Positions 7,255 through 45,492 of a stretch of DNA of 64,000 nt are shown piece by piece. The stretch lies in NCBI GenBank assembly GCA_016218025.1, contig JACRFD010000077.1, forward strand, positions 797 to 64,796. Direction: 5' to 3'. Below the pieces are notes generated by a model. That model searched no databases, was not told where the DNA came from, and worked only from the letters and a program-made list of their open reading frames with translations. The position numbers were made by a program, and so were the translations under genes. This DNA comes from Ignavibacteriales bacterium (lineage in GTDB: Bacteria; Bacteroidota; Ignavibacteria; UBA10030; SZUA-254). How positions within the stretch are numbered: position 1 is the stretch's first letter; every line of letters begins with the position of its first letter.

Positions 7255-7422
7255 AGGAAATGGGTTTTAAAGAATGAGATTCTTCTTGATTAAAAACAGA
7301 TCGGAATCAATCCTTTTTAGAAAAAATTTCTTCCCTATTTTAGTTATTGGGCAAAAGCTAAAGAGAATGGAATATTGATTTTGAAGTAAACTGAATTCAA
7401 AAAATAATCAAGAAAAATTACG

Positions 7423-7495
7423 CCTATCTCCGGGATCCCACCGTGATTCGCTTTAATCCCGAAGCAATCACTACCCGGGGATAGGCTTTTTATTC
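7423..7495 (+). terminator. Long compound hairpin with T-run (terminator or small-RNA 3' end)
   Basis: gcctatctccggg (7423-7435) pairs with cccggggataggc (one G-U pair). An inner stem is gtgatt(c)gc/gcaatcac. The structure is followed by tttttatt and lies ~170 nt after the S8 gene stop. Confidence 0.45.
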
Positions 7496-7872
7496 CACTC
7501 TATTTTATTGGAGACACAAATTCTTTACCTCTCTCTATATATATATGTACACCGAAACATGCAAGCGTATTGAGAACATCTTTGATTGGAGATGGAAAAG
7601 ATCAATAGGTAAAGCTGTTATGGCGGTAAGAATTCCTCCCAAATTGAATATTAAGTGAGTTTTCCGGCATATCCCTCCCCATCAAAAATTGCAGGTTGAT
7701 TTTAGTTAAACATCTTTGTATCATAAAAGAGTTGATCCTATCGCGATCAGGATAGTTGGTTTAGAATACAAGGGGCATATATATAGATTTTGAGAACGGC
7801 AGGATAATAAATCGATATGTCTATAATAAACATACTATCAACAGGTAACACAAAAATCGAAGGAAGCACCGC

Positions 7873-10800: not shown

Positions 10801-11148
10801 CGAGTCTTCGGTGACCACGCTCTGCTACGCTTGGTTTGGTTCAATTTGCTGAGCAATGCGGTCAAGTTCACTCGAACAAAAGAGAAAGCGAAGATAGAAA
10901 TTGGAGTTAATGAAGAGAAAAAGGAATTTATTTTCTTTGTACGCGATAATGGTGTGGGATTCGATATGCAGTATGCTCAAAAATTGTTTGGCGTATTTCA
11001 GCGACTCCATTCCACAGAAGAATTTGAAGGAACCGGCATCGGGCTTGCAAACGTCCGCCGAATCATTTTAAAGCACGGTGGACGCACCTGGGCTGAAGCA
11101 GAATTAGATAAAGGAGCTACATTTTATTTTTCATTGCCAAAAACATAA
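7873..11148 (+). CDS. Membrane-anchored multi-PAS sensor histidine kinase
   Basis: Two N-terminal TM helices. At least five PAS/PAC units are separated by 'DITERK..EEAL..SE' linkers. HisKA H-box is [13 protein letters not shown]. HATPase motifs are [15 protein letters not shown] and GTGIGLA. Confidence 0.9.
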
Positions 11149-11160
11149 GGAGAATTAGAC

Positions 11161-11604
11161 ATGATTGATTTAAGGACTATATTGCTCGTTGAAGATAATC
11201 CGAAAGATGTCGAATTGACTCTTGAGGCACTGGCTGAACACAACCTTGCCAACAGAGTTACAGTAGCTAAAGACGGCGTAGAGGCAATGGAATATCTGCG
11301 TTGCGAAGGTAAATACAAATTACGAAATCCGGAGCAACCGGCAGTAATACTTTTGGATATTAAAATGCCGCGCATGGATGGCATTGAAGTGCTTCAAGCT
11401 ATTCGGGGTGATGGCAAACTGAAAAAGATTCCGGTTGTTATGCTCACTTCCTCTCGCGAGGGTCCTGATCTAAAAAAGTGCTACGACCTCGGAGCCAATG
11501 CGTATGTGGTAAAGCCGGTAGATTTTGAAAATTTTATTGAAGCTGTGAAACAGGTTGGTGTTTTTTGGGCAGTTATTAACGAACTACCGCCAGAGAGGGT
11601 GTAA
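11161..11604 (+). CDS. Single-domain response regulator (CheY-like receiver)
   Basis: ILLVEDNPKDVEL..., the phospho-acceptor context VILLDIKMPRMDG, and SSREGPD...GANAYVVKP. Confidence 0.9.
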   Translation: MIDLRTILLVEDNPKDVELTLEALAEHNLANRVTVAKDGVEAMEYLRCEGKYKLRNPEQPAVILLDIKMPRMDGIEVLQAIRGDGKLKKIPVVMLTSSREGPDLKKCYDLGANAYVVKPVDFENFIEAVKQVGVFWAVINELPPERV

Positions 11605-11607
11605 TTT

Positions 11608-14600
11608 ATGAAAAAGAAATCTAATGATAAGATATCAATAAAAATTTTATGTCTTGAAGACTCGTCTCGAGATATGGAGATTATTGCGGAATTACTAAGA
11701 GACGCAGGAATCGAACTAACAATAGATTGGGCAGCTACCGAGAAAAAATTTGTTTCATTTCTCCGAAACAATAAGTACGACATTATTCTTTCTGATTTTA
11801 GATTACCGGCATTTGATGCATTCGGAGCATTGAGGATAACACTCCAGATATGTCCTGATGTTCCATTTATTTGTGTCTCCGGATCAATCGGTGAGGAGAC
11901 TGCCATCGATCTCATAAGGCAGGGCGCTGTTGATTATGTTTTAAAAGATCGATTAGTAAAACTTCCTACTGCAATTAAACGAGCGCTTGATGAAGTGAAG
12001 GAAAAAGAATCCCGACGACAAGCAGAAGAAGCACTATGTAAGAGTGAAGAACGCTACCGTCTTCTTTTCAACACCAGCATGGATGGTGTGTTGCTTACAT
12101 CCCCTACCGGCGAAATATTTTCAGCCAATCCGGCTGCATGTAAAATGTTCCAACGCACAGAAGAAGAGCTTTGTGCACTTGGACGAGATTGCGTTGTAGA
12201 TAAATCCGACCCACGATTAGAGATCGGTCTAGAAGAACGTGCCCGCACCGGTAAGTTCAGTGGAGAACTTATTCTGATGCGAAAAGACGGTTCAAAATTT
12301 CCTGCAGAAATTACCACCGCTATTTTTAAGGACAAAGATAAGCAAGAACGATCGAGTATGATTATAAGAGATATTACCGATCGTAAACGCTCGGAAGCAG
12401 TGCTTCGGGATGACGAAGCCAAAACGCGTACTATTCTCGAAGCTATTTCAACGGGTATATTAATTATTGACCCGGAAACACACACTATTGTAGATGTAAA
12501 TGCCGTTGCCATAAAACTGATCGGAGAATCGAAACAAAAAATAGTCGGAAGCGTTTGCCATGAATATATATGCTCTGCTGAAAAGGGGAAATGTCCAGTT
12601 ACAGATATTGGGCAATCAATCGACAATTCCGAACGTGTATTGATAACTAAAAAAGGTAAAAAAATTCCTATCCTCAAAAGTGTAGCACAAATAACCATCG
12701 GAGGCAAAAAATTCCTTATCGAGAACTTTACCGATATCACCGAGCGCAAGCAGGCGGAGGAAGCACTGCATGAGAGCGAAAGAAAAATAAGAGAAGCTCA
12801 AGAAATGGCTCACTTAGGTTATTGGAGCTGGAATGTTAAAACAGGAGACGTTGAATGGTCAGAGGAAGTGTACAAGATTTTTCGTCTTGACCCGAGCAAT
12901 TTCACTCCCCACATCGATTCAATCCTTGCATTATCGCCGTGGCCCGGTGATCATGAGCGCGACGAGGAATTAATTCGGCGAGCTATGGAAAATCATGAAA
13001 TGGGCTTTTACGAACAGCGGTTCCTTCGCCCTGACAAAAGTATCGGTTATTACCAGTCGACTTTCCAAGGTAAATATGATAACCAGGGGAATCTCACCTT
13101 CATTATCGGAACTATTCAAGACATTACCGAGCGCAAGCAGGCGGAAGAGAAGATTCGCGAAAAAGATATACAGTTTAGAAAGCTTTCTGCAAATGTGTCC
13201 GACCTGATTTTTCAGTTTACAAGACGACCTGACGGAACATATTGCGTTCCGATAGCCTCAGAAGGTATCAAGAACATTTTTGGATGTTCACCGGAAGATG
13301 TACTCGATGACTTTGCTCCGATTAGCAGGGTGATTTTCCCAGAAGATTCAGCCAGGGTAATAAGCGACATTGAATACTCTGCAAAGCATTTAACTTTCTT
13401 TACCTGTGAATTCAGAGTGCAAATTCCCGGCAAAGCAATCCAATGGATTTATTCTAAATCAAACCCCGAAAAATTGCCCGACGGTAGTATTACCTGGTAT
13501 GGCTTTAATGCAGACATCACCGAGCGCAAGGCGGCAGAGTCAAAGTTGAAGGAAAGCGAGGAGCAATACCGTACACTTGTAGAAACGATGAGAGACGGCG
13601 TTATGCAGGTTGATAATAATGATATCATCCTGTTCGTAAATGATAGCCTGTGCAAAACACTCGGCTATAAACGCGAAGAACTTGTGGGAAAAGTTGGGTA
13701 TGAAGTTTTTATTCATGAAGATGATAAGAAAAAAGTAATACAAAAAAACAAATTCCGTACAAAAGGTAAATCCGATAATTACGAGGTTCGGGCTATAAAG
13801 AAATCCGGTGAGATTATATGGTTAAATATAGGAGGCGCGCCTGTTTATAACCATCAGGGTTCGGTTATTGGTTCAGTTGGAATACTCACTGATATTACTG
13901 AGCGTAAACAGACAGAGGAAGCGCTTCGGAAAAGCGAAGAGCGATATCGTCTAATTTCAGCAGTCGCTTCAGATTACACTTTTTCAACCAAGCTCGGAGC
14001 TAAAGGTGAACTTGTTCTGGACTGGGTTGCAGGAGCATTTGAACGCATCACGGGATACGGATTCGAAGAATATGTTGCCAGAGGCGGATGGCGTGCGGCA
14101 CTGCATCCCGATGATCTGGTTAAAGATGATCTCGACATGGAGAAGCTCAGCAAAAACCAGCCTGTCATTACCGAGCTTCGGACAATCACAAAGAACGGAG
14201 ACACAGTATGGGTACGCATTTATGCCCATCCTGTATGGGATACTAAGCAAGAAAAATTGGTCGGAATTTTTGGTGCGGTACAGGACATCACGGAGCGTAA
14301 GCGTGCTGAGAACATATTACGTGAAAGCGAAGAGCGGTACCACTCGTTATTTGATAGAATGATGGACGGCGTTTATCGCAGTACGCACGAAGGAAAGTTT
14401 GTTGATGTTAATCCGGCAATGGTCAAGATGTTCGGCTTCAAAAGCAAAGAAGATATGCTGAAGGTTGACATTAAAAAAGATCTTTATTTTGCTCCATCTG
14501 AGAGAGACAGTTTATTCATGGACACAGGTCAAGAGCGCACGGAAATATTCCGGATGCGCCATAAGGATGGTTCCGAAATTTGGGTCGAAGATCACGGTAC

Positions 14601-30862: not shown

Positions 30863-31334
30863 TAGTCGGTCAACACAACAAAAGCAAAATCATACCGCTT
30901 CGTTATGAAGTCGCGCAAACATGAAGCTTATGTGACGCCATTATTATTAAAATTTTTGCAACTACCCCTTGATTTAATCACAGAACTATATTTAATTTAG
31001 TTTCCCTCGTCACACAATAACAGAGTCGTAATTCGAAAACTAATTATTGAAATAATCCTAATCTTTCCAATTTTTCTAACCACATAAATACGAAACTACT
31101 TGTCTACTTAGCTCCCTATTTCTACAGTTCACATTTCATTTTTTTGCAAGAATCTTAGTATGAACTTCGATCAACTTTCCCTTCATCACTCAGACTTGTT
31201 CTTTGATTTCCACCGATTTTTTTCGTACAATTATTTCATATAAATAATAAAATGGATAAGCCGATCTGAAATCATCATCGGATCACACCGTTCTAAATCC
31301 CTTAATATTATATGAAAGTGAGGTTTTTTCATAA

Positions 31335-32552
31335 ATGAATGTGAGCCAACTTGCACGTTCTATCGCTGAATCGCCTACTCTTCGGTTAACCGAAGAAGCT
31401 CGGTTATTAAAAGAAAAAGGCGAAGCAGTTATTCACCTCGGAGCGGGTGAACCGAAAAATAAAGCTCCAATCAACGCCATCCTGAGTTCAGCGGCAAAAC
31501 TTAATACCGGCGATGTAAAATACACGCCAACTGACGGCACTCCGTCGCTTAAGAAAGCAATCATCAGATACACTGAAGAGAACTACGATAAGATGGTTGC
31601 ACCGGAAAATATTATCGTGTCGGCAGGCGCGAAACAATCTGTCTTCAATTTACTCTACACTTTATTAAATCCGCAGGAAGAAGTTATTATTCTCGCACCA
31701 TACTGGGTCAGTTATCCGGAAATGGTGCGCATGTGTTACGGCGTACCGGTAATCGTTACACCCGAAGACGGTTCATTCCATCCACGAATGAAAGACATCG
31801 AACAAAAAGTCAGTTCTTACACAAAGGCGATTATCATAAACAGTCCCAACAATCCATCGGGCGTAATGTACAGCGAACAGTTTATCGCAGAGATAATTGA
31901 ATTCTGTGAGCGCAAAGGTATTTACTGCATCATGGACGATATCTATCATAAATTAATTTTTGATGGAAGAAAACCTATCTCTGCATACAAACATACAAAG
32001 AAAGATTTAGAAAATTCCAGACTGATTATCGTGAACGGAATCTCGAAACTTTATGGTATGACCGGCTTCCGAATCGGGTGGACGGTTGCACCAAAAGCGT
32101 TAACGCAGATTATGACAAATGTACAAGGACAAATTACAACAACAACATCTGTCGTACTTCAAGCGGCTGCCGAAGGCGCGCTGATGGGTATTCAAAGTAT
32201 CGTTGAAGGATTACGATTGATGATCGAGAATAACCGGAACGTTATGATGCAGGAGCTGCAATCTTTCAACGGAGTAAAAGTCAACAAACCGGATGGAACA
32301 TTTTACTGTTTACCCGACTTCAGAGCATACAATCAAAACTCACTTGAATTATCTAACTTCCTTTTGAAGAAAGCTTTGGTCGTAACGGTTCCCGGAAAAG
32401 AATTCGGCATGGAAGGTCACTTACGCTTGAGTTACTGCGGCTCGATAAAAGAAATCAAGCAAGGTATTGAACGAATAAAATGGGCGCTTGATCCCAACTC
32501 ACCAAATGAAATATTTATCGGCGAACGGAAATTAGTGAGGGATTGGTTATGA
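31335..32552 (+). CDS. PLP-dependent class I/II aminotransferase (aspartate/aromatic type)
   Basis: GAGEP, NSPNNPSG, PLP lysine in GISKLYGMTGFRIGW, and RLSY near the C-terminus. Confidence 0.85.
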   Translation: MNVSQLARSIAESPTLRLTEEARLLKEKGEAVIHLGAGEPKNKAPINAILSSAAKLNTGDVKYTPTDGTPSLKKAIIRYTEENYDKMVAPENIIVSAGAKQSVFNLLYTLLNPQEEVIILAPYWVSYPEMVRMCYGVPVIVTPEDGSFHPRMKDIEQKVSSYTKAIIINSPNNPSGVMYSEQFIAEIIEFCERKGIYCIMDDIYHKLIFDGRKPISAYKHTKKDLENSRLIIVNGISKLYGMTGFRIGWTVAPKALTQIMTNVQGQITTTTSVVLQAAAEGALMGIQSIVEGLRLMIENNRNVMMQELQSFNGVKVNKPDGTFYCLPDFRAYNQNSLELSNFLLKKALVVTVPGKEFGMEGHLRLSYCGSIKEIKQGIERIKWALDPNSPNEIFIGERKLVRDWL

Positions 32553-34189
32553 ACAATTTATTGAATATAAAAACACCGGCTCAAGATCAAGCCAAAGCCC
32601 TGAAGAGCGATTACGGATTGGCAAATCACGGCTTAACCAACCTGAATACGGTTTATTGGAATCTTCCTACTGAAGCACTCTATGAAGAGATCACTTTCCG
32701 TGGAGAAGCAAAAATTTCCAAGCTCGGACCAATCATAGCACACACAGGAAAACACACAGGTAGATCGGCTAACGATAAATTTGTTGTGAAGGAACCTTCG
32801 ACACAGGATAAAGTATGGTGGGGCGAGTACAACCGACCTTTCAATCAGGATAAGTTCAACGAGGTTCACAGTCGCTTGCAAGGTTTCTTGCAGGGCCGGG
32901 ATCTTTTTGTTCAAGACTGCTTTGCTGGAGCGGATGAAGAATATCGATTGCCTATCCGAATCATCACAGAGAAAGCATGGCACAGCGCTTTCGCGCGAAA
33001 TATGTTCATCCTGCCTAAAACTGCCGAAGAATATAAACGGCATGTTCCAGATTTCACAATCATGTCGATTCCTTCTTTTAAAGGATTACCGCAGATCGAT
33101 GGAACATCGACAGAAACATTTATACTTTTAAACTTCGAACAGAAGATAGGCATAATTGGCAACACTGCTTACGGTGGAGAAATAAAGAAATCGATCTTCA
33201 CAGTAATGAATTTCTTACTGCCGTTAGATGGAGTAATGCCGATGCATTGTTCCGCGAACATCGGGAAAGAAAAAGATACCGCTTTGTTCTTTGGATTATC
33301 AGGCACCGGAAAAACAACTCTTTCTGCCGATCCGAACCGCGGATTAATCGGCGATGACGAACATGGCTGGAGCGATGAAGGTATCTTCAACTTCGAGGGA
33401 GGCTGCTATGCGAAAGTTGTTGCCCTCTCTCCCACTGCCGAGCCGCAGATTTACGCATGCACACAGAAGTTCGGAACAATTTTAGAAAATGTTGTTTACG
33501 ATCCGGTTACCCGCAAGATTGATTTGGATGACGCAACAATTACAGAAAACACACGCGCATCGTATCCTCTTGAATTTATCGACAATGCAGTACCGGAAAA
33601 AATGGGCGGACATCCTAAGAACATCATTCTATTAACGTGCGATGGACTTGGAGTGTTGCCTCCGATAGCGAAGCTTTCACCTGAACAGGCGATGTATCAG
33701 TTTATGTCGGGCTACACAACGAAAGTTGCAGGGACAGAGATGGGACTTGGTAAAGAGCCGGAGCTGACTTTCAGCGCATGTTTCGGCGCACCGTTCATGG
33801 TACATCATCCGGCTGTTTATGCCGACTTGCTTAAGCGGAAAATGCTGAAGTACGGCGCGCACTGCTGGTTGGTAAACACCGGCTGGGTTGGCGGACCATA
33901 CGGCGTAGGCAAGCGAATAAGCATTAAGTATACGCGACAATTATTGAACGCGGCGCTTAGCGGTGAACTGCTAAAAGTTAAATTCAAAAAAGATCCTCTC
34001 TTTGGTTTCGAAGTGCCTGAAACTTGCGGAGATATACCACAAAGCGTACTCAATCCTGCATCGTCGTGGAACAGCAAAGAAGCACACATGACGAAATACA
34101 AGCAGCTTGCGAGCCGGTTCATTGAGAACTTCAAGAAATATGAATCCGGTTGTCCGGTTGAAGTTATTAAGGCTGGACCGAAGGTGTAG
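32543..34189 (+). CDS. pckA: Phosphoenolpyruvate carboxykinase (ATP)
   Basis: GRSANDKF, kinase-1a FFGLSGTGKTTLS, IGDDEHGW, FNFEGGCYAK. Confidence 0.95.
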   Translation: MVMNNLLNIKTPAQDQAKALKSDYGLANHGLTNLNTVYWNLPTEALYEEITFRGEAKISKLGPIIAHTGKHTGRSANDKFVVKEPSTQDKVWWGEYNRPFNQDKFNEVHSRLQGFLQGRDLFVQDCFAGADEEYRLPIRIITEKAWHSAFARNMFILPKTAEEYKRHVPDFTIMSIPSFKGLPQIDGTSTETFILLNFEQKIGIIGNTAYGGEIKKSIFTVMNFLLPLDGVMPMHCSANIGKEKDTALFFGLSGTGKTTLSADPNRGLIGDDEHGWSDEGIFNFEGGCYAKVVALSPTAEPQIYACTQKFGTILENVVYDPVTRKIDLDDATITENTRASYPLEFIDNAVPEKMGGHPKNIILLTCDGLGVLPPIAKLSPEQAMYQFMSGYTTKVAGTEMGLGKEPELTFSACFGAPFMVHHPAVYADLLKRKMLKYGAHCWLVNTGWVGGPYGVGKRISIKYTRQLLNAALSGELLKVKFKKDPLFGFEVPETCGDIPQSVLNPASSWNSKEAHMTKYKQLASRFIENFKKYESGCPVEVIKAGPKV

Positions 34190-34227
34190 TATTAGCCGGT
34201 GGTGAGTAGTAAGTAGTGAGTAACTAT

Positions 34228-34269
34228 AAAACTCCGATTTCGAAAGAGGTCGGAGTTTTTTATTTGTAA
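34228..34269 (+). terminator. Terminator hairpin, copy 1 of a 42-nt direct repeat
   Basis: aaaactccgatttc-GAAA-gaggtcggagtttt plus ttatttgtaa; 14-bp stem including two G-U pairs; T-run follows. Confidence 0.7.
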
Positions 34270-34431
34270 TGGAGGAAGAGACAATTTATATCCATTTTAT
34301 GAAAGAGCAAAAACATTATTCATCATAATAACCTTTAAATTCCACCAATTTTTGACAAAATTAAACTTGAATTTGACATTTTGAAATAACTACGTTATAT
34401 TAATTCGTAATAACATGATGATTTAATATAC

Positions 34432-35310
34432 ATGCCTAACGCATTTCAATCAATTCAAAAAGAGGTTTCTCAGCATCATTCGTTGCGACAACCATTTATA
34501 AGAAATATCCAAAAATTGCGAGAGAAACGTTTGGTTATTTCTTTTTTTATCTCTTTTTATTCAAAATCACCGCTAAGCCAAGAAGACGCTGATATGATTG
34601 AGGAGGTGTTATGTAATTCAGATACATCGAAAGGCATAACGCTTATACTTGATGCCCCTGGAGGTGACGGATTAGCCGCTGAACGAATTATTCAACTCTG
34701 CCGTAAATATAGCAATAAGGATTTCGAAACAATAGTCCCCGCTAGAGCAAAATCAGCAGCCACGATGGTTTGCCTCGGTTCAGACCGAATATTGATGGGG
34801 GCAACGTCCGAATTGGGACCTATTGATCCTCAGATTCCAATGAAAATCGGTGAATCATGGCAATGGGTGGCTGCTCATAGAGTTATAAAAACTTTTGATG
34901 ATCTAATGTCAAAAGCCATTGATCTGAAAGAAGGACATATCGAGCCTCTTTTGCAACAATTAGCTCAATTTAATGCTACACAAATTGAGATGTTACGATC
35001 AGCGACAAAACTGTCTGAAAGTATAGCTATATCATCTTTGAAAAGGGGCATGTTGAAAAATAAAAATGAAAAAGATATTAAGACTAAAATCAAGTGTTTC
35101 ACTGATCCAGAGATAACATTTTCTCATGGACGTGCCTTAAATATAGAACATCTCACAGATTGCGAATTAATTATTGAAGAGATCGAATTAAAATCTGATC
35201 TTTGGAGAAATGTGCGTGATCTTTATTCTCGAAGCAAATTCGTAGTAGATCGTGGAGAACCAGGTCGTAAATTATTAGAGACAACTAATTCCTCATATCA
35301 GGCAACATAG
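34432..35310 (+). CDS. SDH-family (DUF114/SDH_sah-like) Clp-fold serine protease
   Basis: ITLILDAPGGDGLAAERII, VPARAKSAATMVCLGSDRILMG (candidate nucleophile Ser), and ELGPIDPQ. This pattern fits the ClpP/SppA-like fold family that RefSeq labels SDH family Clp fold serine proteinase (from memory, not searched). Confidence 0.7.
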   Translation: MPNAFQSIQKEVSQHHSLRQPFIRNIQKLREKRLVISFFISFYSKSPLSQEDADMIEEVLCNSDTSKGITLILDAPGGDGLAAERIIQLCRKYSNKDFETIVPARAKSAATMVCLGSDRILMGATSELGPIDPQIPMKIGESWQWVAAHRVIKTFDDLMSKAIDLKEGHIEPLLQQLAQFNATQIEMLRSATKLSESIAISSLKRGMLKNKNEKDIKTKIKCFTDPEITFSHGRALNIEHLTDCELIIEEIELKSDLWRNVRDLYSRSKFVVDRGEPGRKLLETTNSSYQAT

Positions 35311-35321
35311 AGGTTATTACT

Positions 35322-35537
35322 ATGAAAAAAAAATCTACCAAAAAAATAAAATCAGATAAACTAAAAAAACTTTTCAATAAACATTTAGAAGCTCTCGATA
35401 AAATTGAACGCGCCGCACGCTTTCCAATTGAGAATCCTTCCATTATAATATTGGAAAATTCTGATTGGCAAATACAAAAACATGAATCAAAAAATTATCC
35501 TGGCGCAGCTTCATTTTTCCTTTCTGCTCATATTTGA
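35322..35537 (+). CDS. Small hypothetical protein (71 aa, Lys-rich N-terminus), probably co-translated with the protease
   Basis: AGAGG lies 9-10 nt upstream of the ATG, and the gap from the upstream ORF is 11 nt. I recognised no family. Confidence 0.45.
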   Translation: MKKKSTKKIKSDKLKKLFNKHLEALDKIERAARFPIENPSIIILENSDWQIQKHESKNYPGAASFFLSAHI

Positions 35538-35592
35538 ATTCTTTTTTTGACTGTTTTTATTTCGCATTCTTGAAAGACAATATCATAAAATA

Positions 35593-35634
35593 AAAACTCC
35601 GATTTCGGAAGAGGTCGGAGTTTTTTATTTGTAA
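35593..35634 (+). terminator. Terminator hairpin, copy 2 of the 42-nt direct repeat; also serves convergent coaD
   Basis: Identical to 34228-34269 except for one loop base (GGAA instead of GAAA). Confidence 0.7.
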
Positions 35635-35716
35635 ACTAAAAGATAATACATTGACGTATAGTGGCACTAAACGTCAATAGACTTGCGTTTAGTTCGGGGG
35701 CTAAAATAATAAAACT

Positions 35717-36193
35717 TTACTTAAATTTCTTTCTCAACGTCTGCTTAACACTTACCGGCACAAACCCCGATACATCTCCCCCCATTCTTGCAATCTCACG
35801 CACGATACTCGAATTTAGATATGTATATTTCTCGTGCGGCATAAGAAAAACCGTCGTTATTTCTTTGGCAAGTTTGCGGTTCGTTAATGCCATTTGAAAC
35901 TCATATTCAAAATCAGAAACTGCCCTTAAACCGCGGACAATTGCCGTGGCTTTTTTCTTCTTCGCATAATTAACAAGCAGTCCTTCAGAACTGTCGACTT
36001 CAACATTCTTAAATTTCTTCACAACATCTTTTATCATCTTTACACGCTCTTCGGTGCTGAACAGCGGAGCCTTTGAACTATTACGCGCGACCATAACTAT
36101 CACTTTATCGAATATCTCCCTCGCCCTCTCTATAACATCAACATGACCGTAAGTTATCGGATCGAATGTTCCTGGGTAAATAGCTATTTTCAT
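35717..36193 (-). CDS. coaD: Pantetheine-phosphate adenylyltransferase
   Basis: [24 protein letters not shown]..., [12 protein letters not shown]. Confidence 0.95.
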
Positions 36194-36756
36194 TTTTCAT
36201 CTCCTTTTTCTTTTGGATAGACGAAGAAACTAACACGCGTGTTGCCGAATTCTTTCTGCACTTCCATGCTATACATGAGAGAATTTGGAAAGGATGTATG
36301 CTTCGAATGTTCTATTATCAAATATCCATTTTTATTAAGCAGGTTATTCCGGAATATTATTTCAGGAATATCGGGTATACGGGTGTATGAATACGGCGGA
36401 TCGGCAAAAATCAAATCATATTTATTTTTTGATTTTTCGATGTAAGTCAATGCATCACCTTGAAAAATCTGCGTCTGCGAAATACAACCAAGCATATCAG
36501 CATTCTCTTCTATTATATCCAAAACTCCTTCATTGTCATCCACAAACGTCACCGAACTTGCACCGCGACTTATCGTTTCAAAGCCCAGACTTCCGCTCCC
36601 TGCAAACAAATCAAGAACCTGTATATCTTTCAAAGATAATCGGTTCAGAAACATATTGAATATTGTAGTCTTCACCCTGTCGGTAGCCGGACGTACACTT
36701 TTATCCTGAACCGTGGTAAGATTTCGACCTTTGAATTTTCCGGTTATTATTCTCAT
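36190..36756 (-). CDS. rsmD: 16S rRNA (guanine966-N2)-methyltransferase RsmD
   Basis: [13 protein letters not shown]...[26 protein letters not shown], and the DPPY motif (FADPPY). The ATG at 36756 is preferred; the track ORF extends upstream into the neighbouring gene. Confidence 0.85.
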
Positions 36757-36757
36757 T

Positions 36758-37627
36758 TCATCTCTTTCGCAATGCAACACCGGTGGCAGCGGCAAATAAA
36801 TGTTCTTTTCCTGCAAACAATTTAAAGTCACTGTAAGAAGAGGTAGTTATATTTCTCCTGAACGGATTCAGCATATTCACATGAATCCCCAGCCGGTTTC
36901 TGAGAGTTACACCGAGTTCCTGTGACGCGGTTCCGCCGCAAAGATATAATTCCGTTACAATCTCTTCTTGTTTAATGGATTGGAATAAATTAACGATGCT
37001 GTCTGAAGTTGATTGAAGGTTGTGACCGAATTTTACAACTCTTCCATTGACAAAAATGCCAATACTGATTTCATTAAAATCGGAAAGAATCAGTGCAACA
37101 GTTTTATTTCTGATTTCGGGAAAGACAGAAAGCAGCGTTTGCTCTGCGCCGAAAAATGAGGTGTCGGCGATATGAAGCTCTATTTTTTTAGATTCCAAAG
37201 CCGATTGTATTCCGAACAATTTTTCACGTTTTATTGCCACAACAAGAACATCTGCCACCTGATCACGGGCTGATATTCTAAGAGAGTGCAAATCGTAAAT
37301 ATATTCTTTCGGCTGATAATTTTTAATGAAGTTCGACAGTTCCCAGTGCACATGTCCATTTTGTTCAGATTGGTTCAAGGTAGTATCTAAAGGAAAAGTA
37401 TGCAGTACAACAGAATTGATATCGAGCGCAACCGAAACCTTGTCGGCTTTCTTTAGAATCCGCAGTTCGGGAGAAATAATTTTCTCAAGGAACCAGTGAT
37501 CTGATTGTTTTGCTGATAAATGTTCGGCAAGGTGAAGTAATTTTACATCTCCATTTTTTACTTCATAAACTGCGATATGCGATCTGTTTCCGGAATAACT
37601 TACACCGGCTACAATTTCTTTACCCAT
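36758..37627 (-). CDS. Hypothetical protein, possibly PilM/FtsA-like actin-fold ATPase
   Basis: The N-terminal G.S....SHIAV.E region and the C-terminal LYLCGGTAS...LG..V..LNPF are weakly reminiscent of PilM. Confidence 0.4.
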   Translation of the reverse strand: MGKEIVAGVSYSGNRSHIAVYEVKNGDVKLLHLAEHLSAKQSDHWFLEKIISPELRILKKADKVSVALDINSVVLHTFPLDTTLNQSEQNGHVHWELSNFIKNYQPKEYIYDLHSLRISARDQVADVLVVAIKREKLFGIQSALESKKIELHIADTSFFGAEQTLLSVFPEIRNKTVALILSDFNEISIGIFVNGRVVKFGHNLQSTSDSIVNLFQSIKQEEIVTELYLCGGTASQELGVTLRNRLGIHVNMLNPFRRNITTSSYSDFKLFAGKEHLFAAATGVALRKR

Positions 37628-37630
37628 TTT

Positions 37631-38107
37631 TCACTTTCCTGCCGTTACAAGCGGCGAAATTTTTTCGAACTTCTTTTTACCGATCCCACCGACTTTCATT
37701 AGTCCGGAAATATTTTTAAAGTTTCCGTTTTTCTCGCGATAGGAAATAATATTTTGTGCAATTGTCTCACCTATCCCCGGTAATTTCATTAATTCATTCT
37801 TCGATGCGGAATTAATGTCTATCGATTTAATTTCAAGATTTTTTAATGATGAATTGATGTTTACGAGTGAGTCGGATGCTAGATTTCCATCAGCAGCATT
37901 TTTGCTCAACAAGCTTTCGGGAACAGCCGAACGAGCGATAAATTCAGAATCGATTGCCGAATAATTATATTGAGTTTGATTACCGATGGATGATTTGTAC
38001 AGCTTGATTCCGATGCCGGAGAAAAACGCAATCACCAGAAACAAAATAATCCTGCTCTCGGATTTCGTAAACCCAAATGTTTGATTAAATTTAGAGAGGA
38101 TATTCAT
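37631..38107 (-). CDS. comEA: ComEA-family helix-hairpin-helix DNA-binding protein
   Basis: N-terminal TM helix and C-terminal tandem HhH: DINSASKNELMKLPGIGETIAQNIISYREKNGNFKNISGLMKVGGIGKKKFEKI. Confidence 0.8.
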   Translation of the reverse strand: MNILSKFNQTFGFTKSESRIILFLVIAFFSGIGIKLYKSSIGNQTQYNYSAIDSEFIARSAVPESLLSKNAADGNLASDSLVNINSSLKNLEIKSIDINSASKNELMKLPGIGETIAQNIISYREKNGNFKNISGLMKVGGIGKKKFEKISPLVTAGK

Positions 38108-38110
38108 TTG

Positions 38111-39286
38111 TCACGATAAAATATCTTTCATTTTTTCAAAAAAGGATCTATCAGAATTCGCCGATTTATCTCCTTCGTGCGGTTGAATACTATCGCTTTT
38201 TGAAAGTTGCTTCATTAAATCTTTATCTTCTTTTGATAAATGAGTAGGCACATAAACATTAACTCTGACTAATTGATCTCCTCTATAATCACCGCGGAGA
38301 TTTGGAATTCCTTTTCCTCTTAACCTGAGTACTTTACCCGATTGAGTTCCGGGCTCAATTTTTAATTTTGTTTTTCCATTGATTGTCGGAATTTCAATTT
38401 CAGTTCCTAATGCGGACTGTGGAAAACTGACAAGCATATCTAATAAAATATCGTCACCGTTTCTTGTGAATATTTTATGTGGTTCTTCCTCAATCACAAC
38501 TATCAAATCGCCTGCTTCTCCACCCCGCTGCCCTGCATTCCCCTGTTCTTGTAACGGGATATAATTTCCTTCTGCAACACCTGCCGGGACATTCACTTTA
38601 ATTGTTGTTTCGCCCTGGACACGTCCTTCGCCGTGACAATTAGTACATCGATCTTTTATGATGCGTCCTTCACCTCCGCAATTACTGCAAGTTGTTACGC
38701 TTACAAATTGTCCAAAAACCGAACGAGAGACTTGTCGGACTTCTCCATGTCCATTGCAAACGGGACAGGCAGTTTTTGTTGATCCTGCTTTTGCACCCGT
38801 ACCGTTGCAAATATCGCATCCTTTCCATCTCTTTACTTTTAATTTTTTCTCTACACCTGATGCAATCTCTTCCAAAGTTAGTCTAAGACGTATTTTTAAA
38901 TCCGAACCGGGAACACCTACCTGCATTCTGCTACGCTGACTTGATCTACCGCCGGTAAACACTTCTTCAAAAATGGAACCACCAATTCCACCGCCAAAAA
39001 TATCGTTGAAGTGCTGGAAGACATCGTTAAAATTTGTGTATGTATGGAAATCGGATCCTGCACGCATTCCTTCGTGACCAAATTGGTCGTAACGCCTCCG
39101 TTTGTTATCATCACTTAAAACTTCATAAGCTTCAGCGGCTTCTTTAAAATTTTCTTCAGCTTCTTTATTCCCAGGATTGCGGTCAGGGTGCCACTTCATC
39201 GCAGCTTTGCGGTAAGATTTTTTTATTTCATCCTGTGTTGCATTTCTTTGAAGTTCAAGTATTTCGTAATAATCGCGTTTCGGCAT
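38111..39286 (-). CDS. dnaJ: Molecular chaperone DnaJ
   Basis: J-domain with HPDRNP, a G/F region, and four CxxCxGxG zinc motifs. Confidence 0.95.
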
Positions 39287-39295
39287 TTTTATTCT

Positions 39296-39913
39296 CTAAT
39301 CAGTTTCAGATAAATTATTCTTTAAAGGCTCTTCGTCATTCTGCTGCTTCGTTGAAACAACAACTTTTGCATGTCGAATCACCCGCTCGTGAAGCATGTA
39401 TCCTTTTTCAACTTCTTGCATTACTGTATGATCGGGATATTCCTCTGATGGCATTTGCAACAATGCATCATGAAATTCCGGATTAAAAGGCTGACCAACC
39501 GCATTAAGCGGTTTAACACCCTGAAGCTCTAAAGTTCTTTTCAATTTATTATAAATTAGTTCGATGCCTTTAACAAAACTTTCATTTTCAACGTTAGCCT
39601 CTTTAAGAGCAAGAAAGAATCTCTCAAAATCATCAAGCACTGGCAGCATTTTTTCGATTAGATCTTCATTCGCATAACGGATGATATTTGCAGTTTCATT
39701 TTCTATACGTTTTTTGTAATTCTCGAACTCCGCAGCTTTCCTTAACGCTTGGTCTTTATATTGAAGAACATTATTTTCCAGCTCCACAATTTTGGAACTG
39801 AGCATATCGGTTTGTGTTAGTTCAGGCAGCTGATTCTGGATATTTTGTTCTGAGGATTTTTCTTTCTTTTGATTATCTAAATTTTCCTCATCCATATTAT
39901 TGTCGATTTCCAT
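39296..39913 (-). CDS. grpE: Nucleotide exchange factor GrpE
   Basis: Coiled-coil N-terminus, AEFENYKKR, FNPEFHDAL, and its position upstream of dnaJ. Confidence 0.9.
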   Translation of the reverse strand: MEIDNNMDEENLDNQKKEKSSEQNIQNQLPELTQTDMLSSKIVELENNVLQYKDQALRKAAEFENYKKRIENETANIIRYANEDLIEKMLPVLDDFERFFLALKEANVENESFVKGIELIYNKLKRTLELQGVKPLNAVGQPFNPEFHDALLQMPSEEYPDHTVMQEVEKGYMLHERVIRHAKVVVSTKQQNDEEPLKNNLSETD

Positions 39914-40493: not shown

Positions 40494-40569
40494 GGGGCTG
40501 TAGCTCAGTTGGGAGAGCGCCTCGTTCGCAACGAGGAGGTCGTCGGTTCGATCCCGATCAGCTCCACCA
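40494..40569 (+). tRNA. tRNA-Ala (anticodon CGC), CCA encoded
   Basis: 76 nt. Acceptor GGGGCTG/CAGCTCC with the G3:U70 alanine identity pair. D arm GCTCAGTTGGGAGAGC, anticodon arm CCTCG-TTCGCAA-CGAGG, T arm GTCGG-TTCGATC-CCGAT, then ACCA. Confidence 0.9.
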
Positions 40570-40867: not shown

Positions 40868-40980
40868 CTCAGCTGGTCTACGACTCTACGATCAACGATC
40901 CCGTAGGGAGTCGTAGACTCGTAGAGGAGAGCGCCTCGTTCGCAACGAGGAGGTCGTCGGTTCGATCCCGATCAGTTCCA
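40858..40980 (+). pseudogene. Second tRNA-Ala(CGC) copy disrupted by a 50-nt palindromic insertion in the D-loop
   Basis: Outside 40877-40926 it matches the first copy at 70/73 positions. The differences are G1->A (creating an A1-C72 mismatch), T16->C and C69->T. It is followed by ACA rather than CCA. Confidence 0.6.
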
Positions 40981-41056
40981 CAGAATGTATGGTATCTGTT
41001 CTGCGCCAGAGGCGCATCCGCCTTCCGCCATTAAAATCGGCGGACAGGTTGGCGGA

Positions 41057-41203: not shown

Positions 41204-41316
41204 AAAAAGTTCTTAGTGAGTAGTTAATTGTGAGTCTGATTATTAAACGCTCACAAATCTACCAATCACAAGTAAGTCGATCAACCACTATTCCGTACTT
41301 CAATCACCTTCATCGA

Positions 41317-43431
41317 ATGAATAATACAAATAAATCCAATCGTCTCATCAACGAAAAAAGTCCGTACCTCCTTCAGCACGCGCACAATCCCGTAGATTGG
41401 TATCCTTGGGGAGATGAAGCATTTCAAAAAGCCCGCGATGAAAACAAACCGATTTTCGTATCGATAGGTTATTCAACCTGTTATTGGTGCCATGTTATGG
41501 AGCGGGAAGTATTTGAAAATGAAACTATCGCTCAAATAATGAACGAGAAAATGATCAACATAAAAGTCGACCGTGAGGAGCGCCCCGATGTTGACCGCGT
41601 TTATATGAGTGCGCTTATTGCCACCACCGGACAAGGCGGCTGGCCCATGTCGGTTTTTCTTACTCATGATCTGAAACCTTTCTATGCCGCAACATATATT
41701 CGTCCAATCGAACATCACGGCAAGCCGGGATTTTCTGATCTGGTAAAACGCATCAGTGAACTTTGGATAAACGAGCAAAATAAAATAATTTCAACCAGCG
41801 ACCAGATCACTGAACATCTGAAACAATTGTCAAAACCGGATCATGAAATCATTATTAATGAATCGAATATTAGTAAAGCATATCAAAAATTTTTAGAGAG
41901 TTACGATTCACAATATTGCGGGTTTGGCAATGCGCCAAAATTCCCAAGACCTTCTGTGTTTAATTTTCTATTAAGATATTTTAAACAAACCGGCAATGGC
42001 TCATCGCTTAAAATAGTTCTCAACACCCTCCGAGCAATGGCACGCGGCGGCATGTACGATCAGCTTGGCGGCGGCTTTCATCGCTATTCAGTTGATGAGC
42101 AATGGCGTGTTCCTCATTTCGAAAAAATGCTTTACGATCAGGCACAACTTGCTATTTCATATTTAGAAACGTATCAGATTACGAAAGACGATACGCTGAT
42201 TGAAACCACAAAAGGTATTTTAGATTATGTGCTGATAAAACTTCATCATAAAGATGGCGGATTTTATTCCGCAGAAGACGCAGAGAGTGTTACTGATTCA
42301 TCTAAACCGAACGAAAAAGAAGAAGGTGCTTTTTATGTTTGGACAAAATATGAAATCGATTTGCTTCTCGGAAAAGAAAATGGAGAAATCTTTCATTTTA
42401 ATTTCGGGCTTGAAGATGAAGGAAACGCTCTCGAAGACCACCTGAATGTTTTTTATGAACAGAACATCCCATACGTTGCTCATAACATTGAGGAGACTGC
42501 ACAGAAGTTTGGAAAAACACCTGATGAATTGAAGCAACTCATACTTGCAACAAAACATAAATTATATCTCGAACGCGAGAAACGTCCGCATCCGCATCTT
42601 GACGATAAAATAATAACGGCTTGGAACGGGTTGATGATCTCGGCTTATGCCAAAGCATACCGGTGTCTTGAGTATGATATTTACCGAGATACTGCAGAGA
42701 GCGCTGCACAATTCATAATGAAAAATCTTTACAATCCACAAACTCAAACTCTTTATCGTCGTTACCGCGACGGTGATGCCCGCTTCGATGGCGGCTTGCA
42801 GGATTATGCTTTTATGATTCAAGGATTGATTGATCTTTATGAAACAACTTTCGATTTCCAATGGCTTGAATACGCAATATCGTTGACAGAAAAACAGATT
42901 GAATTATTTTGGGATAAAGAGTCGGGCGGATTTTTCGACACAACCGGAAACGATCCATCAATTATTTTAAGAACAAAAGAAGATTACGATGGCGCCGAAC
43001 CGACAGGCAATTCCATTGCCGCGTTGAATCTCCTAAAACTTTCACAAATAATCAATAGCAACAATTGGCGCGAGATGGCAGAAAAAACTATGCAATCGTT
43101 TGGAGCACGCCTGACTCAAATGCCGGAAGCGTTGCCACAAATGTTAGCAGCGTTAAATTGGAATCTATCAACTCCGAAGGAAATAATTATAGTCGGTAAT
43201 CGAAATGCAGAAGACACTAAAATAATGTTAAGAGAAATCGGTAAACATTTCCTGCCGAATAAAATCATCCTGCTTGTAGATGACGATTCGAAATCGAAGT
43301 TAGTCGCCTATCTGCCGTTCATCGAAAATATGACGATGATAGACGGTAAAGCAACAGCTTATATTTGTCAGAATTATAGCTGTCAACTGCCGACGAATGA
43401 TATTGAAAAAGTTGCTGAGAAGTTGGGGTAA
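41317..43431 (+). CDS. Thioredoxin-domain protein of the YyaL/SSP411 (DUF255) family
   Basis: [43 protein letters not shown], and a C-terminal (alpha/alpha)6-barrel-like region. The ATG at 41317 is preferred over the GTG at 41230 used in the ORF track. Confidence 0.85.
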
Positions 43432-43443
43432 CGTCGTAAAGGC

Positions 43444-43497
43444 AAAGTGCGACTCACCTTCAATTTAGGATCACCCATGGAGGTGAGTCGCACATTC
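43444..43497. repeat. REP-like palindromic element, copy 1
   Basis: aaagtgcgactcacc-(loop)-ggtgagtcgcacattc with a 13-bp stem (43447-59 / 43481-93). Confidence 0.7.
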
Positions 43498-43712: not shown

Positions 43713-45395
43713 ATGAAACCGATTCTAATTATATCTTTACTTTCTATATTTATCATCATGGTATCCTGCTCCCCCGCCCCAAACGATGAGCAGAAACTGC
43801 GTGAGTTCATCACCAATCATCTCAAAACTGTCGAGCCGTTGATGAAAACGCAGAACTTAGCCGACTGGCAGGCAAACGCAACAGGCGAAAAGAAATTTTA
43901 CGATGAATCCGCGGCGGCTGAAATTGAAATTAAAAAAATCCGTTCCAATAAAACCGAGTATGCTTTCCTCAAAGAATTGAAGGAGAAAGGACCAATTAAA
44001 GATACTCTTCTCCAGCGGCAGCTTATCGTTCTTTACAACAATTATCTCAAAAATCAGATCGACACTTCTCTGATGCGGAAGATGGTTGAGAAGCAGGCGG
44101 CAATCTCGGAAAAGTTCAACAACTTCCGTGGAAAAATTGAGGGAAAAGAATACGCCGATAACGATTTACGCAGCATGCTGAAAGATGAACGTAACTCTGA
44201 TAAACGAAAACAAGTTTGGGAAGCGACCAAGCAAGTCGGACGTGAAGTCGCGCCGTTGATTATCGAGTTAGTTAAGCTTCGCAATCAGGCGGCAAAGCAG
44301 CTCGGTTTCGATAACTATTATGTAATGGCGCTTTCAACCGACGAGCAGAATGCAGACGATGTCATCAAAGTGTTCGATGAGTTAAAACAATTGACAGACG
44401 AGCCATTTAAACAATTAAAATCGGAGCTTGATGCGTCTATCGCAAAGAAATTCGGCACGAAACCGGAAAAGCTGATGCCGTGGAATTATGTGAATCCGTT
44501 CTTCCAGGAAATATCTGAAGCCGGCACAGTCGATCTTGATAAATTTTTCAAAGGTAAAAATGTTGTCGAGGTTGGAACTGCTTTCTACAAAGGCATTAAT
44601 TTACCGGTGGAAGATATTCTAAAGAACAGCGATCTTTACCCGCGCAAAGGAAAATACCAACATGCTTTCTGTAACGACATAGACCGGCTTGGCGATGTGA
44701 GAACAATGTGCAACATCACCGATAATCATGAATGGATGGGAACACTTTTACATGAATTAGGTCACGGTGTTTATTCATTGAATGTTGACCGTAATCTTCC
44801 GTTCTTACTACGAACAGAAGCACATACATTTACAACAGAAGCAATTGCAAATCTTATGGGCAGGCAGGCATATAACGTAGATTGGCTGCAAGCGATGGTT
44901 GGCTTGGACGAGAAAGAAAAAGAATCTCTCCGCAAGGATGTTCAGAAGAATTTAAGAATGACGCAATTAGCATTCACACGCTGGTCGCAGGTGATGGTGC
45001 GATTCGAACGGGCTATGTATGAAAATCCGGATCAGGATTTGAACAAATTGTGGTGGGATTTAGTCGAGCAGTATCAATTTGTTAAACAACCTGAAAATCG
45101 AAACGAGCCTGATTGGGCAGCAAAAATTCATCTGGCACAATATCCTTGCTATTACCACAACTATACGCTCGGCGAACTTGCTGCATCTCAGATTACGAAC
45201 AGTATAGTAAGGACAGTCGAGAAGCAAAACGCATTTGCCGAAATTTCATTTGCAGATAAGCCGGAGATCGGAGATTACCTGAAGCAGAAAATATTTATGC
45301 CCGGCGCTAAGTATCAGTGGAATGATTTCCTGAAACAAGCTACCGGTGAAGAATTGACAGCGAAATATTTTGCCGAAGAGTTTGTAGCGAAGTAA
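43713..45395 (+). CDS. Zinc metallopeptidase lipoprotein (gluzincin; M2/ACE-like by motif spacing)
   Basis: Lipobox IMVSC. HELGHGVY followed ~25 aa later by TEAIANL (the ACE family has HEMGH...EAIGD). About 560 aa. Confidence 0.7.
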   Translation: MKPILIISLLSIFIIMVSCSPAPNDEQKLREFITNHLKTVEPLMKTQNLADWQANATGEKKFYDESAAAEIEIKKIRSNKTEYAFLKELKEKGPIKDTLLQRQLIVLYNNYLKNQIDTSLMRKMVEKQAAISEKFNNFRGKIEGKEYADNDLRSMLKDERNSDKRKQVWEATKQVGREVAPLIIELVKLRNQAAKQLGFDNYYVMALSTDEQNADDVIKVFDELKQLTDEPFKQLKSELDASIAKKFGTKPEKLMPWNYVNPFFQEISEAGTVDLDKFFKGKNVVEVGTAFYKGINLPVEDILKNSDLYPRKGKYQHAFCNDIDRLGDVRTMCNITDNHEWMGTLLHELGHGVYSLNVDRNLPFLLRTEAHTFTTEAIANLMGRQAYNVDWLQAMVGLDEKEKESLRKDVQKNLRMTQLAFTRWSQVMVRFERAMYENPDQDLNKLWWDLVEQYQFVKQPENRNEPDWAAKIHLAQYPCYYHNYTLGELAASQITNSIVRTVEKQNAFAEISFADKPEIGDYLKQKIFMPGAKYQWNDFLKQATGEELTAKYFAEEFVAK

Positions 45396-45438: not shown

Positions 45439-45492
45439 AAAGTGCGACTCACGTCCAACCTTGAATCTGCCCTGAACGTGAGTCGCACATTC
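45439..45492. repeat. REP-like palindromic element, copy 2; sits between convergent genes
   Basis: aaagtgcgactcacg-(loop)-cgtgagtcgcacattc with a 12-bp stem (45442-53 / 45477-88). It shares the 14-nt and 15-nt arms with copy 1. Confidence 0.7.

Follow-up and report, generated by a model that had tools for sequence, protein, structure and literature searches.

FS_HP_SDH_sah is a two-gene anti-phage system listed by DefenseFinder. It was reportedly found in phage-inducible chromosomal islands, in work credited to Fillol-Salom et al. in Cell in 2022. A locus of comparable make-up lies in a 64,000-nt stretch of DNA from an Ignavibacteriales bacterium (contig JACRFD010000077.1, positions 797 to 64,796 of the forward strand; hereafter the window), where a cassette consisting of a gene for a 292-residue serine protease and an open reading frame (ORF) of 71 amino acids (aa) sits in the terminator shared by two housekeeping genes, pckA and coaD. 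FS_HP_SDH_sah likewise combines an SDH_sah (PF01972) protease with a hypothetical protein and occurs on mobile elements, a likeness of composition. The window protease differs in being 25-27% identical to the retrieved enterobacterial SDH proteinases; its small gene lies downstream, with no upstream ORF in the cassette, and its host is an Ignavibacteriales metagenome-assembled genome (MAG), not an enterobacterial satellite. The name of the system is confirmed in DefenseFinder (PMC13532340), and an earlier interpretation of the window from its letters alone (the sequence-only reading), which held that no system of this composition had been described, was thus too strong.

The fold family is already known and named, and a two-gene SDH_sah defence system is already listed. 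What appears to be new is the definition of the partner family, its obligate linkage to this protease clade across phyla, and the anatomy of an insertion into a terminator for which an empty site is available. In the literature searched (PF01972, SDH_sah, and ClpP-like together with anti-phage), no cellular role is described for SDH-family proteases, and the Tai paper (PMC11364771) is unrelated to them.

Other known systems resemble the pair in part. The NfeD (1510-N)-stomatin pair also encodes a ClpP-fold serine protease beside the protein it acts on, and 1510-N is the closest solved sequence relative of the window protease. However, NfeD is membrane-bound, uses a Ser-Lys dyad and has a large SPFH partner, whereas the window proteins look soluble and the partner has about 60-70 residues without an SPFH domain. 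In phage lambda, the slot directly after cI is the position of rexAB. A distant SDH proteinase and a 56-aa ORF hold that slot in E. coli prophages; neither is related in sequence to RexA or RexB, and the likeness is positional, drawn through relatives of 26% identity and not through the window clade. Type II toxin-antitoxin systems in which the toxin comes first (HigBA, HicAB, MqsRA) share two small coupled genes, mobility, patchy occurrence and proximity to other toxin-antitoxin genes, and the window genes, too, are adjacent, co-directional, tightly coupled and inherited as a unit. In contrast to these systems, the pair has no known toxin or antitoxin domain, its larger protein is a protease instead of an RNase or kinase, and the small protein has no recognisable DNA-binding fold. 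An SDH-type ClpP-fold protease clade with a dedicated partner is a concrete candidate for a protease-based system of defence or addiction.

A duplicated terminator and its empty site

The cassette is bracketed by two copies of a 42-nt direct repeat (34228-34269 and 35593-35634), which lie 1365 nt apart, enclose a segment of 1323 nt and are identical at 41 of 42 positions. Each copy consists of a 14-bp stem closed by a tetraloop, with an A run on one side and a T run on the other, and the sole mismatch (34243 A versus 35608 G) lies in the loop, as GAAA versus GGAA. The repeat, its degree of identity and the place of its one difference had been described correctly in the sequence-only reading. 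On the plus strand, the left and right copies are predicted to fold at -19.2 and -21.0 kcal/mol (z -5.4 and -5.7), and on the minus strand at -14.7 kcal/mol. Because the fold is strong on both strands, the repeat is predicted to be a bidirectional intrinsic terminator, which fits its place between convergent genes. No third copy occurs within the 64-kb window when up to 3 mismatches are allowed, and 100 shuffles of the sequence yielded 0 matches to the 42-mer.

The state of the locus without the cassette can be read from relatives. A scan for pckA across one genome per species gave five close relatives, L061, L029, L044, L063 and L006 (L-numbers denote homologous or related loci used for comparison), and the cassette is absent from all five. 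In L061, whose pckA is 97% identical at the protein and about 83% at the nucleotide level, the pckA stop codon is followed by 24 nt, a single terminator copy (7671-7711) and then about 60 nt that match the right flank of the window cassette (35635-35695). Aligned as a block, window 35593-35695 and L061 7671-7774 are 90% identical, including a second hairpin that lies in this flank. L061 thus has the arrangement of an empty site, one terminator copy joined to the right flank, as the alignment of related pckA-coaD loci had been expected to reveal if the cassette was inserted. In L029 (pckA 87% aa), pckA and coaD are convergent with 166 nt between them, and in L044, L063 and L006 (pckA 95-97% aa) sequences other than the cassette lie 3' of pckA. 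Insertion of the unit into the common terminator of pckA and coaD, as proposed, is accordingly supported by the one-copy site of L061, by the 166-nt gap of L029 and by the relatives that lack the cassette.

Composition sets the cassette apart from its surroundings. Its GC content is 33.6%, compared with a window mean of 39.9% (sd 2.7), which places it in the lowest 1% of same-size windows, and GC at third codon positions (GC3) is 0.28 in the protease gene and 0.18 in the small ORF, compared with 0.47 in pckA and 0.42 in coaD. The cassette had been judged more AT-rich than its two neighbours by eye, and the computed values agree. These values support a foreign origin of the cassette, and the case for foreign origin and insertion is made by the low GC content together with the closest relatives of the protease, which are 76-79% identical in amino acid sequence and include a protein from a Verrucomicrobiae MAG. 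The direction of the event, that is, insertion with duplication versus later loss between the repeats, we infer from the foreign composition and the phyletic pattern, in comparisons that run across species.

The 3' side of pckA has also been rearranged in other ways. To the right of the junction, L061 carries an ORF resembling a DUF4143-type ATPase where the window has coaD, and the second hairpin plus 17 nt (window 35650-35695; L061 7729-7774) are about 98% conserved despite the differing next genes. In L063 (7686-7705), the pckA terminator is reduced to its left arm and loop, followed by unrelated sequence and an ORF that resembles a four-helix bundle; this breakpoint inside the hairpin suggests that the terminator hairpin is a recombination hotspot. 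A block of rsmD and coaD, with or without dnaJ, lies upstream of the aminotransferase-pckA pair and on the same strand in L063, L006 and L044, and downstream of that pair on the opposite strand in the window (31300-39300) and L029, which indicates an inversion or rearrangement with one end near the pckA terminator. Taken together, the differing 3' sides of pckA among the relatives and the break in the L063 hairpin mark this side as a variable spot in the lineage, with the hairpin as its probable recurrent breakpoint.

The protease and its dedicated partner

The larger protein is a member of the SDH-type ClpP-fold family, as proposed from its motifs: the Pfam hidden Markov model PF01972 (SDH_protease) matches residues 48-167 at E 2.9e-12, and its 46.6 bits exceed the gathering score of 31.3. 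The NCBIfam model NF047768 ('SDH family Clp fold serine proteinase') reaches 59.7 bits over residues 40-174 only, under an equivalog cut-off of 250. Since this score is so far under the cut-off, the window protease is best placed in a divergent clade, inside the fold family and outside the NF047768 equivalog. The best match in PHROGs is phrog_11747 (E 8e-41), which covers the full length and has no assigned function in that database. The family is large, with 3723 close relatives of this one protease found; all listed close homologues have a precomputed PF01972 match, and an identical sequence is on record from an Ignavibacteriales MAG. Longer homologues of 355-419 aa were considered as possible fusions of protease and partner and set aside, as they carry N-terminal extensions only.

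Across 40 homologues of 44-79% identity, the invariant residues are G77-G78, K107-S108 (in AKSAAT), D132 (in IDPQ) and H232 (in SHGR). Ser108, Asp132 and His232 are candidate catalytic residues, and G77-G78 is a candidate oxyanion hole; the order Ser, Asp, His is that expected for the PF01972 family. An AlphaFold2 (AF2) model of the protease (predicted local distance difference test 91) consists of an N-terminal domain of ClpP/crotonase type and a helical C-terminal domain that bears His232. Among solved folds, SppA, ClpP and the 1510-N NfeD protease come closest (TM 0.40-0.47), a profile search against solved structures detected 1510-N alone (E 7e-4), and no solved structure of the SDH (PF01972) family was among the results of either the fold or the profile searches. 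The sequences of the protease and its partner show neither signal peptides nor membrane segments.

The small protein has 71 aa, an isoelectric point (pI) of 9.9, a Lys-rich N-terminus, a helix and a tail with the motif F34-x14-W49. It matches no family in Pfam, NCBIfam, PHROGs or PADLOC, in line with the sequence-only reading, which had recognised none, and phmmer with this protein alone returned only the self-match. The clade of partners nearest to it (FP...W type) is mostly not gene-called in databases. Conservation was instead assessed from the DNA downstream of protease genes, at 86 loci whose proteases are 37-79% identical to that of the window, 79 of them with enough downstream sequence. 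An ORF of 45-140 aa that starts between -20 and +80 nt from the protease stop is present at 78 of the 79; in 70 it contains the strict partner motif, and most of the remainder fit a looser one. Conservation of the small ORF beside SDH proteases had been named in advance as a test of the pairing, and nearly every homologous locus has it. The coupling is tight: the start of 63 of 64 measured partner ORFs falls at -20 to +43 nt relative to the protease stop, in many cases with an ATGA overlap.

The aligned partners share a basic N-terminus, a helix, an aromatic residue beside Pro (F34, nearly invariant) and, 15 residues on, an invariant Trp (W49). Of 58 partners, 52 keep the F/Y-x14-W spacing; the partners have a median pI of 9.8. 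Pairwise identities of partner and protease are correlated (Mantel r 0.79, a value reached by 0 of 2000 permutations), and the partner diverges much faster, with a mean identity of 22% versus 50% for the protease. A profile search of 1.84 billion cluster representatives retrieved 458 members of the partner family, all stand-alone proteins of 38-109 aa and none with a Pfam domain or a name; the family is defined here for the first time. In an AF2 model of one member, residues 3-36 form a single helix up to the PF motif, and the Trp lies in the low-confidence tail beyond it. Linkage in the surveyed clade is obligate and extends across phyla, and the comparisons identify the small ORF as a genuine conserved partner of this protease clade, probably inherited and transferred with it as a unit.

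Searches that started from the partner point the same way in one case. L177 has an SDH protease remnant upstream of its partner gene; at 7100-8183, this decayed copy contains a protease split into 139 aa with a PF01972 match and then 88 aa, and an intact 60-aa partner. In L175, the gene upstream of the partner encodes 203 aa and has no Pfam match on record. Scans of metagenome and viral contigs with the single protease sequence gave no matches, and a rescan based on an alignment succeeded.

Contexts, movement and possible function

The pair occurs sporadically across phyla, often at mobile or conflict-rich spots. In L003, it lies between genes for TIR and MmeI-type restriction-modification (RM) proteins on one side and an SLFN/AlbA_2 gene on the other. 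L172 and L173, two contigs of ERZ21830300, have identical copies of a protease and its 65-aa partner, and next to each copy lies an IS21 element (rve and IstB), in differing orientations. Elsewhere, the pair stands next to ParE, Phd and HicB genes (L174) or MNT/HEPN genes (L175), and in L179, L180 and L178 it is adjoined by IS66, IS1-like, or resolvase and Ltp genes. In a survey of 137 neighbouring ORFs at 19 loci, a minority gave PADLOC matches to type IIG RM, HmaC, DUF499, BrxP and SspD. The contexts and the composition together support a horizontally moving accessory module, to which the pair would belong.

Distant relatives of 25-30% identity are found in phages and plasmids, at accessory positions. 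On the E. coli plasmid NZ_CP130669.1 (L169, 3146-4987), an SDH proteinase of 26% identity and an abutting 56-aa ORF directly follow a cI-like repressor gene in a lambdoid prophage region. Among 5426 complete E. coli genomes, 20 contain this post-cI pair and 47 have an SDH relative between Q and the holin gene. Elsewhere, Porphyromonas phages carry a relative adjacent to HicAB, a Mu-like phage has one that follows the late regulator, Gordonia phage BeeGee has one behind its tail genes, and in a Pseudomonas element the neighbour is the integrase. A search for a satellite-borne SDH gene, by megablast and blastn of E. coli genomes, returned two prophage types only. The clade moves between phyla and lands in terminators and at the borders of mobile elements, and its cousins occupy exclusion slots of prophages.

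The cassette contains only the two ORFs and no integrase or transposase, as had been noted, and no terminal inverted repeats that bound the unit were found. An insertion sequence or transposon was rejected on account of these absences and the 42-nt length of the duplication. An integron cassette was rejected as well: the hairpin measures 32 nt versus about 57-141 nt for an attC site with its R''/L''-L'/R' boxes, the perfect 14-bp stem has no extrahelical bases, and the 3' arm reads GTTTTTT, not GTTRRRY. Neither the cassette nor the ORF listing for 31000-38500, the part of the window that was scanned for it, contains an integron integrase gene. A group II intron or other structured RNA element that targets terminators was rejected too, as Rfam gave only two sub-threshold chance matches, both on the terminator.

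The unit (34270-35634) would then be a horizontally acquired, self-contained operon that entered the common pckA-coaD terminator, a copy of which now stands on either side, an outcome in which all three transcription units would stay terminated. Its most plausible route would be a single crossover (Campbell-type) between a circular copy bearing the 42 nt and the chromosomal terminator, or some other event at the hairpin. The single-crossover route predicts easy loss by recombination between the repeats. The locus is a clean natural example of a gene cassette without a recombinase that is inserted at a bidirectional terminator and can be compared with an empty site.

Direct repeats also flank some homologous pairs in unrelated metagenome contigs. 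In L123 (1930-2338, 3833-4037), the repeats, of 98 nt (91% identity) and 87 nt (89%), appear to be a duplicated gene 3' end; L127 (551-716, 2419-2480) has a 38-nt and L110 (688-826, 2242-2295) a 24-nt direct-repeat element. These sequences differ from the 42-mer, and most of 46 testable loci have no flanking repeat beyond chance length.

With somewhat better than even confidence, we regard the cassette as a horizontally acquired two-gene module of the anti-phage (abortive-infection or exclusion) or toxin-antitoxin-like kind, in which the protease would be the effector and the small protein the regulator. It would encode a cytosolic SDH-type ClpP-fold protease with an intact set of Ser, Asp and His, together with a basic, rapidly evolving protein of about 60-70 aa whose translation is coupled to that of the protease. 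This partner could act as a labile inhibitor or pseudo-substrate, its tail filling the substrate groove until its removal upon infection or stress; such a role is favoured because of the tight translational coupling, the fast co-evolution with the protease and the shape of a helix plus a flexible tail. The reverse assignment, in which the protease would restrain a basic peptide that is itself toxic, is possible. A bolder extension, which we consider doubtful, is a class of protease-based immunity in which an SDH protease is held by a 'latch' peptide (basic helix plus F/Y-x14-W tail) and released by a phage cue to cleave host or phage proteins, while the module spreads without a recombinase via terminator hairpins or short repeats. 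Spread of that kind would account for the direct repeats at the window, L123, L127 and L110.

Several observations weigh against the preferred reading of a mobile defence or toxin-antitoxin-like module. The surveyed neighbours are dominated by ordinary families, many copies lie among housekeeping genes, and PADLOC v2 has no model that matches the pair. The prophage examples are about 26% identical to the window protease, and their varied downstream ORFs have no demonstrable homology to its partner. In toxin-antitoxin systems, the protease-first order would be the less common arrangement. As for the insertion, the empty-site relatives share about 83-85% DNA identity and so represent other species, not other strains, and a search for same-species contigs found no exact match on record to the pckA and coaD products of the window. 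The nearest homologous cassettes (L089, L003, L001) are similar in DNA within the coding regions only and share no non-coding ends, and we know of no standard transposase that produces a target duplication of 42 nt.

Among the rival explanations, a purely selfish addiction module that has no anti-phage role, pairs a toxic partner with one that neutralises it and persists by post-segregational killing and hitch-hiking on mobile DNA seems rather unlikely, despite fitting much of what is seen: a tight layout of overlapping or closely spaced genes, patchy distribution with horizontal gene transfer, toxin-antitoxin genes as neighbours, the pseudogene decay in L177, and solitary insertions between housekeeping genes such as that in the window. 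It sits less well with the prophage positions of the distant relatives, which are lysogen-expressed slots typically occupied by exclusion genes, or with the listing of a two-gene SDH_sah system as a defence system. Addiction and defence are not exclusive, as many toxin-antitoxin modules act as abortive-infection systems. We give still less credence to a processing protease that would mature or degrade the small protein as its dedicated substrate, such as the precursor of a secreted or signalling peptide, and that serves a cellular role in the manner of the NfeD-stomatin operon. The partner-specific 1510-N NfeD protease is indeed the nearest solved sequence relative (E 7e-4) and also a fold match, and the flexible tail in the model of a partner-family member could be a cleavage substrate, but neither protein has an export signal or membrane segment, no export, modification or receptor genes accompany the pair in the contexts examined, the partner evolves very fast (22% versus 50% mean identity), and the pair occurs sporadically, in mobile and prophage settings.

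Two further alternatives are very improbable. That the two 42-mers belong to a common terminator or REP-like family and merely flank an old resident operon could be argued from a similar hairpin pair in the window (43444-43497 and 45439-45492, 80% identical) and from the fact that the search for the 42-mer covered 64 kb of the genome. However, the 41/42 identity continues past the hairpin into TATTTGTAA, no third copy occurs in those 64 kb, in L061 a single copy connects the two native flanks, and the cassette has a foreign composition and is missing from every close relative. A remnant of prophage morphogenesis, with a ClpP/S49-type head-maturation protease and a fragment of a scaffold or decoration protein, is the least credible reading. 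Its basis is a pair of weak matches, to NF045542 (E 3.9e-06) and phrog_1684 (E 6.5e-05); against it, the NF045542 score is 26.9 bits versus a cut-off of 120, and the best PHROG (phrog_11747) has no assigned function. Portal, capsid and terminase genes are not neighbours of the pair in the window or in about 30 contexts examined, and the phage relatives lie outside the head gene block.

Layout of the cassette and other features of the window

On the left, the locus is bounded by pckA (32543-34189, plus strand), which encodes an ATP-dependent phosphoenolpyruvate carboxykinase (PEPCK_ATP; PF01293, E 1.4e-214). The left repeat copy, with the GAAA loop and a T run, follows on the plus strand and is now the predicted terminator of pckA. 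The cassette then opens with a leader of 162 nt (34270-34431) that has 23.5% GC and no plus-strand ORF of at least 20 aa; it contains a promoter-like site, TTGACA-17-TATATT (34373-34401, plus strand), which matches the consensus at 11 of 12 positions, lies 30 nt 5' of the protease ATG and is a consensus match only. The protease gene (34432-35310) and the partner gene (35322-35537), both on the plus strand, are separated by 11 nt. The arrangement of a leader of about 160 nt, a 292-aa ORF, an 11-nt spacer and a 71-aa ORF had been described as such. The placement of AGAGG inside the spacer held in part: the motif (35309-35313) shares two bases with the TAG stop of the protease gene, and only its AGG lies within the spacer.

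A T-rich 3' untranslated end (35538-35592, 21.8% GC) leads to the right repeat copy, which carries the GGAA loop and is the predicted end of the cassette on the plus strand, usable by coaD on the minus strand. Beyond it, the second hairpin (ATTGACGT...ACGTCAAT; 35650-35678, -13.1 kcal/mol on the minus strand) belongs to the native right flank, lies outside the inserted unit and marks the original junction. The right neighbour, coaD (35717-36193, minus strand), encodes a phosphopantetheine adenylyltransferase (CTP_transf_like; PF01467, E 3.7e-33). A 22-nt inverted repeat (34316-34337 and 35308-35329) was judged to be a chance match in AT-rich DNA. Within the small ORF, the segment 35421-35471 contains promoter-like sites on the minus strand (TTGCCA-18-TATAAT, 11/12) and the plus strand (TTTCCA-17-TATAAT, 10/12); from the former, a transcript antisense to the partner gene could arise.

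Other repeats are present elsewhere in the window. The hairpin-type direct repeats at 43444-43497 and 45439-45492 (AAAGTGCGACTCAC...GTGAGTCGCACATTC) are 54 nt long and 80% identical; one follows a 733-aa ORF (41230-43431) and the other a 560-aa ORF (43713-45395), so that one gene is enclosed between them, an arrangement similar to that of the 42-mer copies around the cassette. Two tRNA-Ala(CGC) genes (40494-40569 and 40907-40981), 414 nt apart, form a tandem in which 56 nt of the 3' portions agree at 98%; this could be a plain tandem duplication or a trace of integration at a tRNA gene. At 8839-14334, nine copies of a periodic coding repeat of about 385 nt (DITERK..AEEAL..SE) form two clusters, a pattern typical of tandem PAS-domain sensors.

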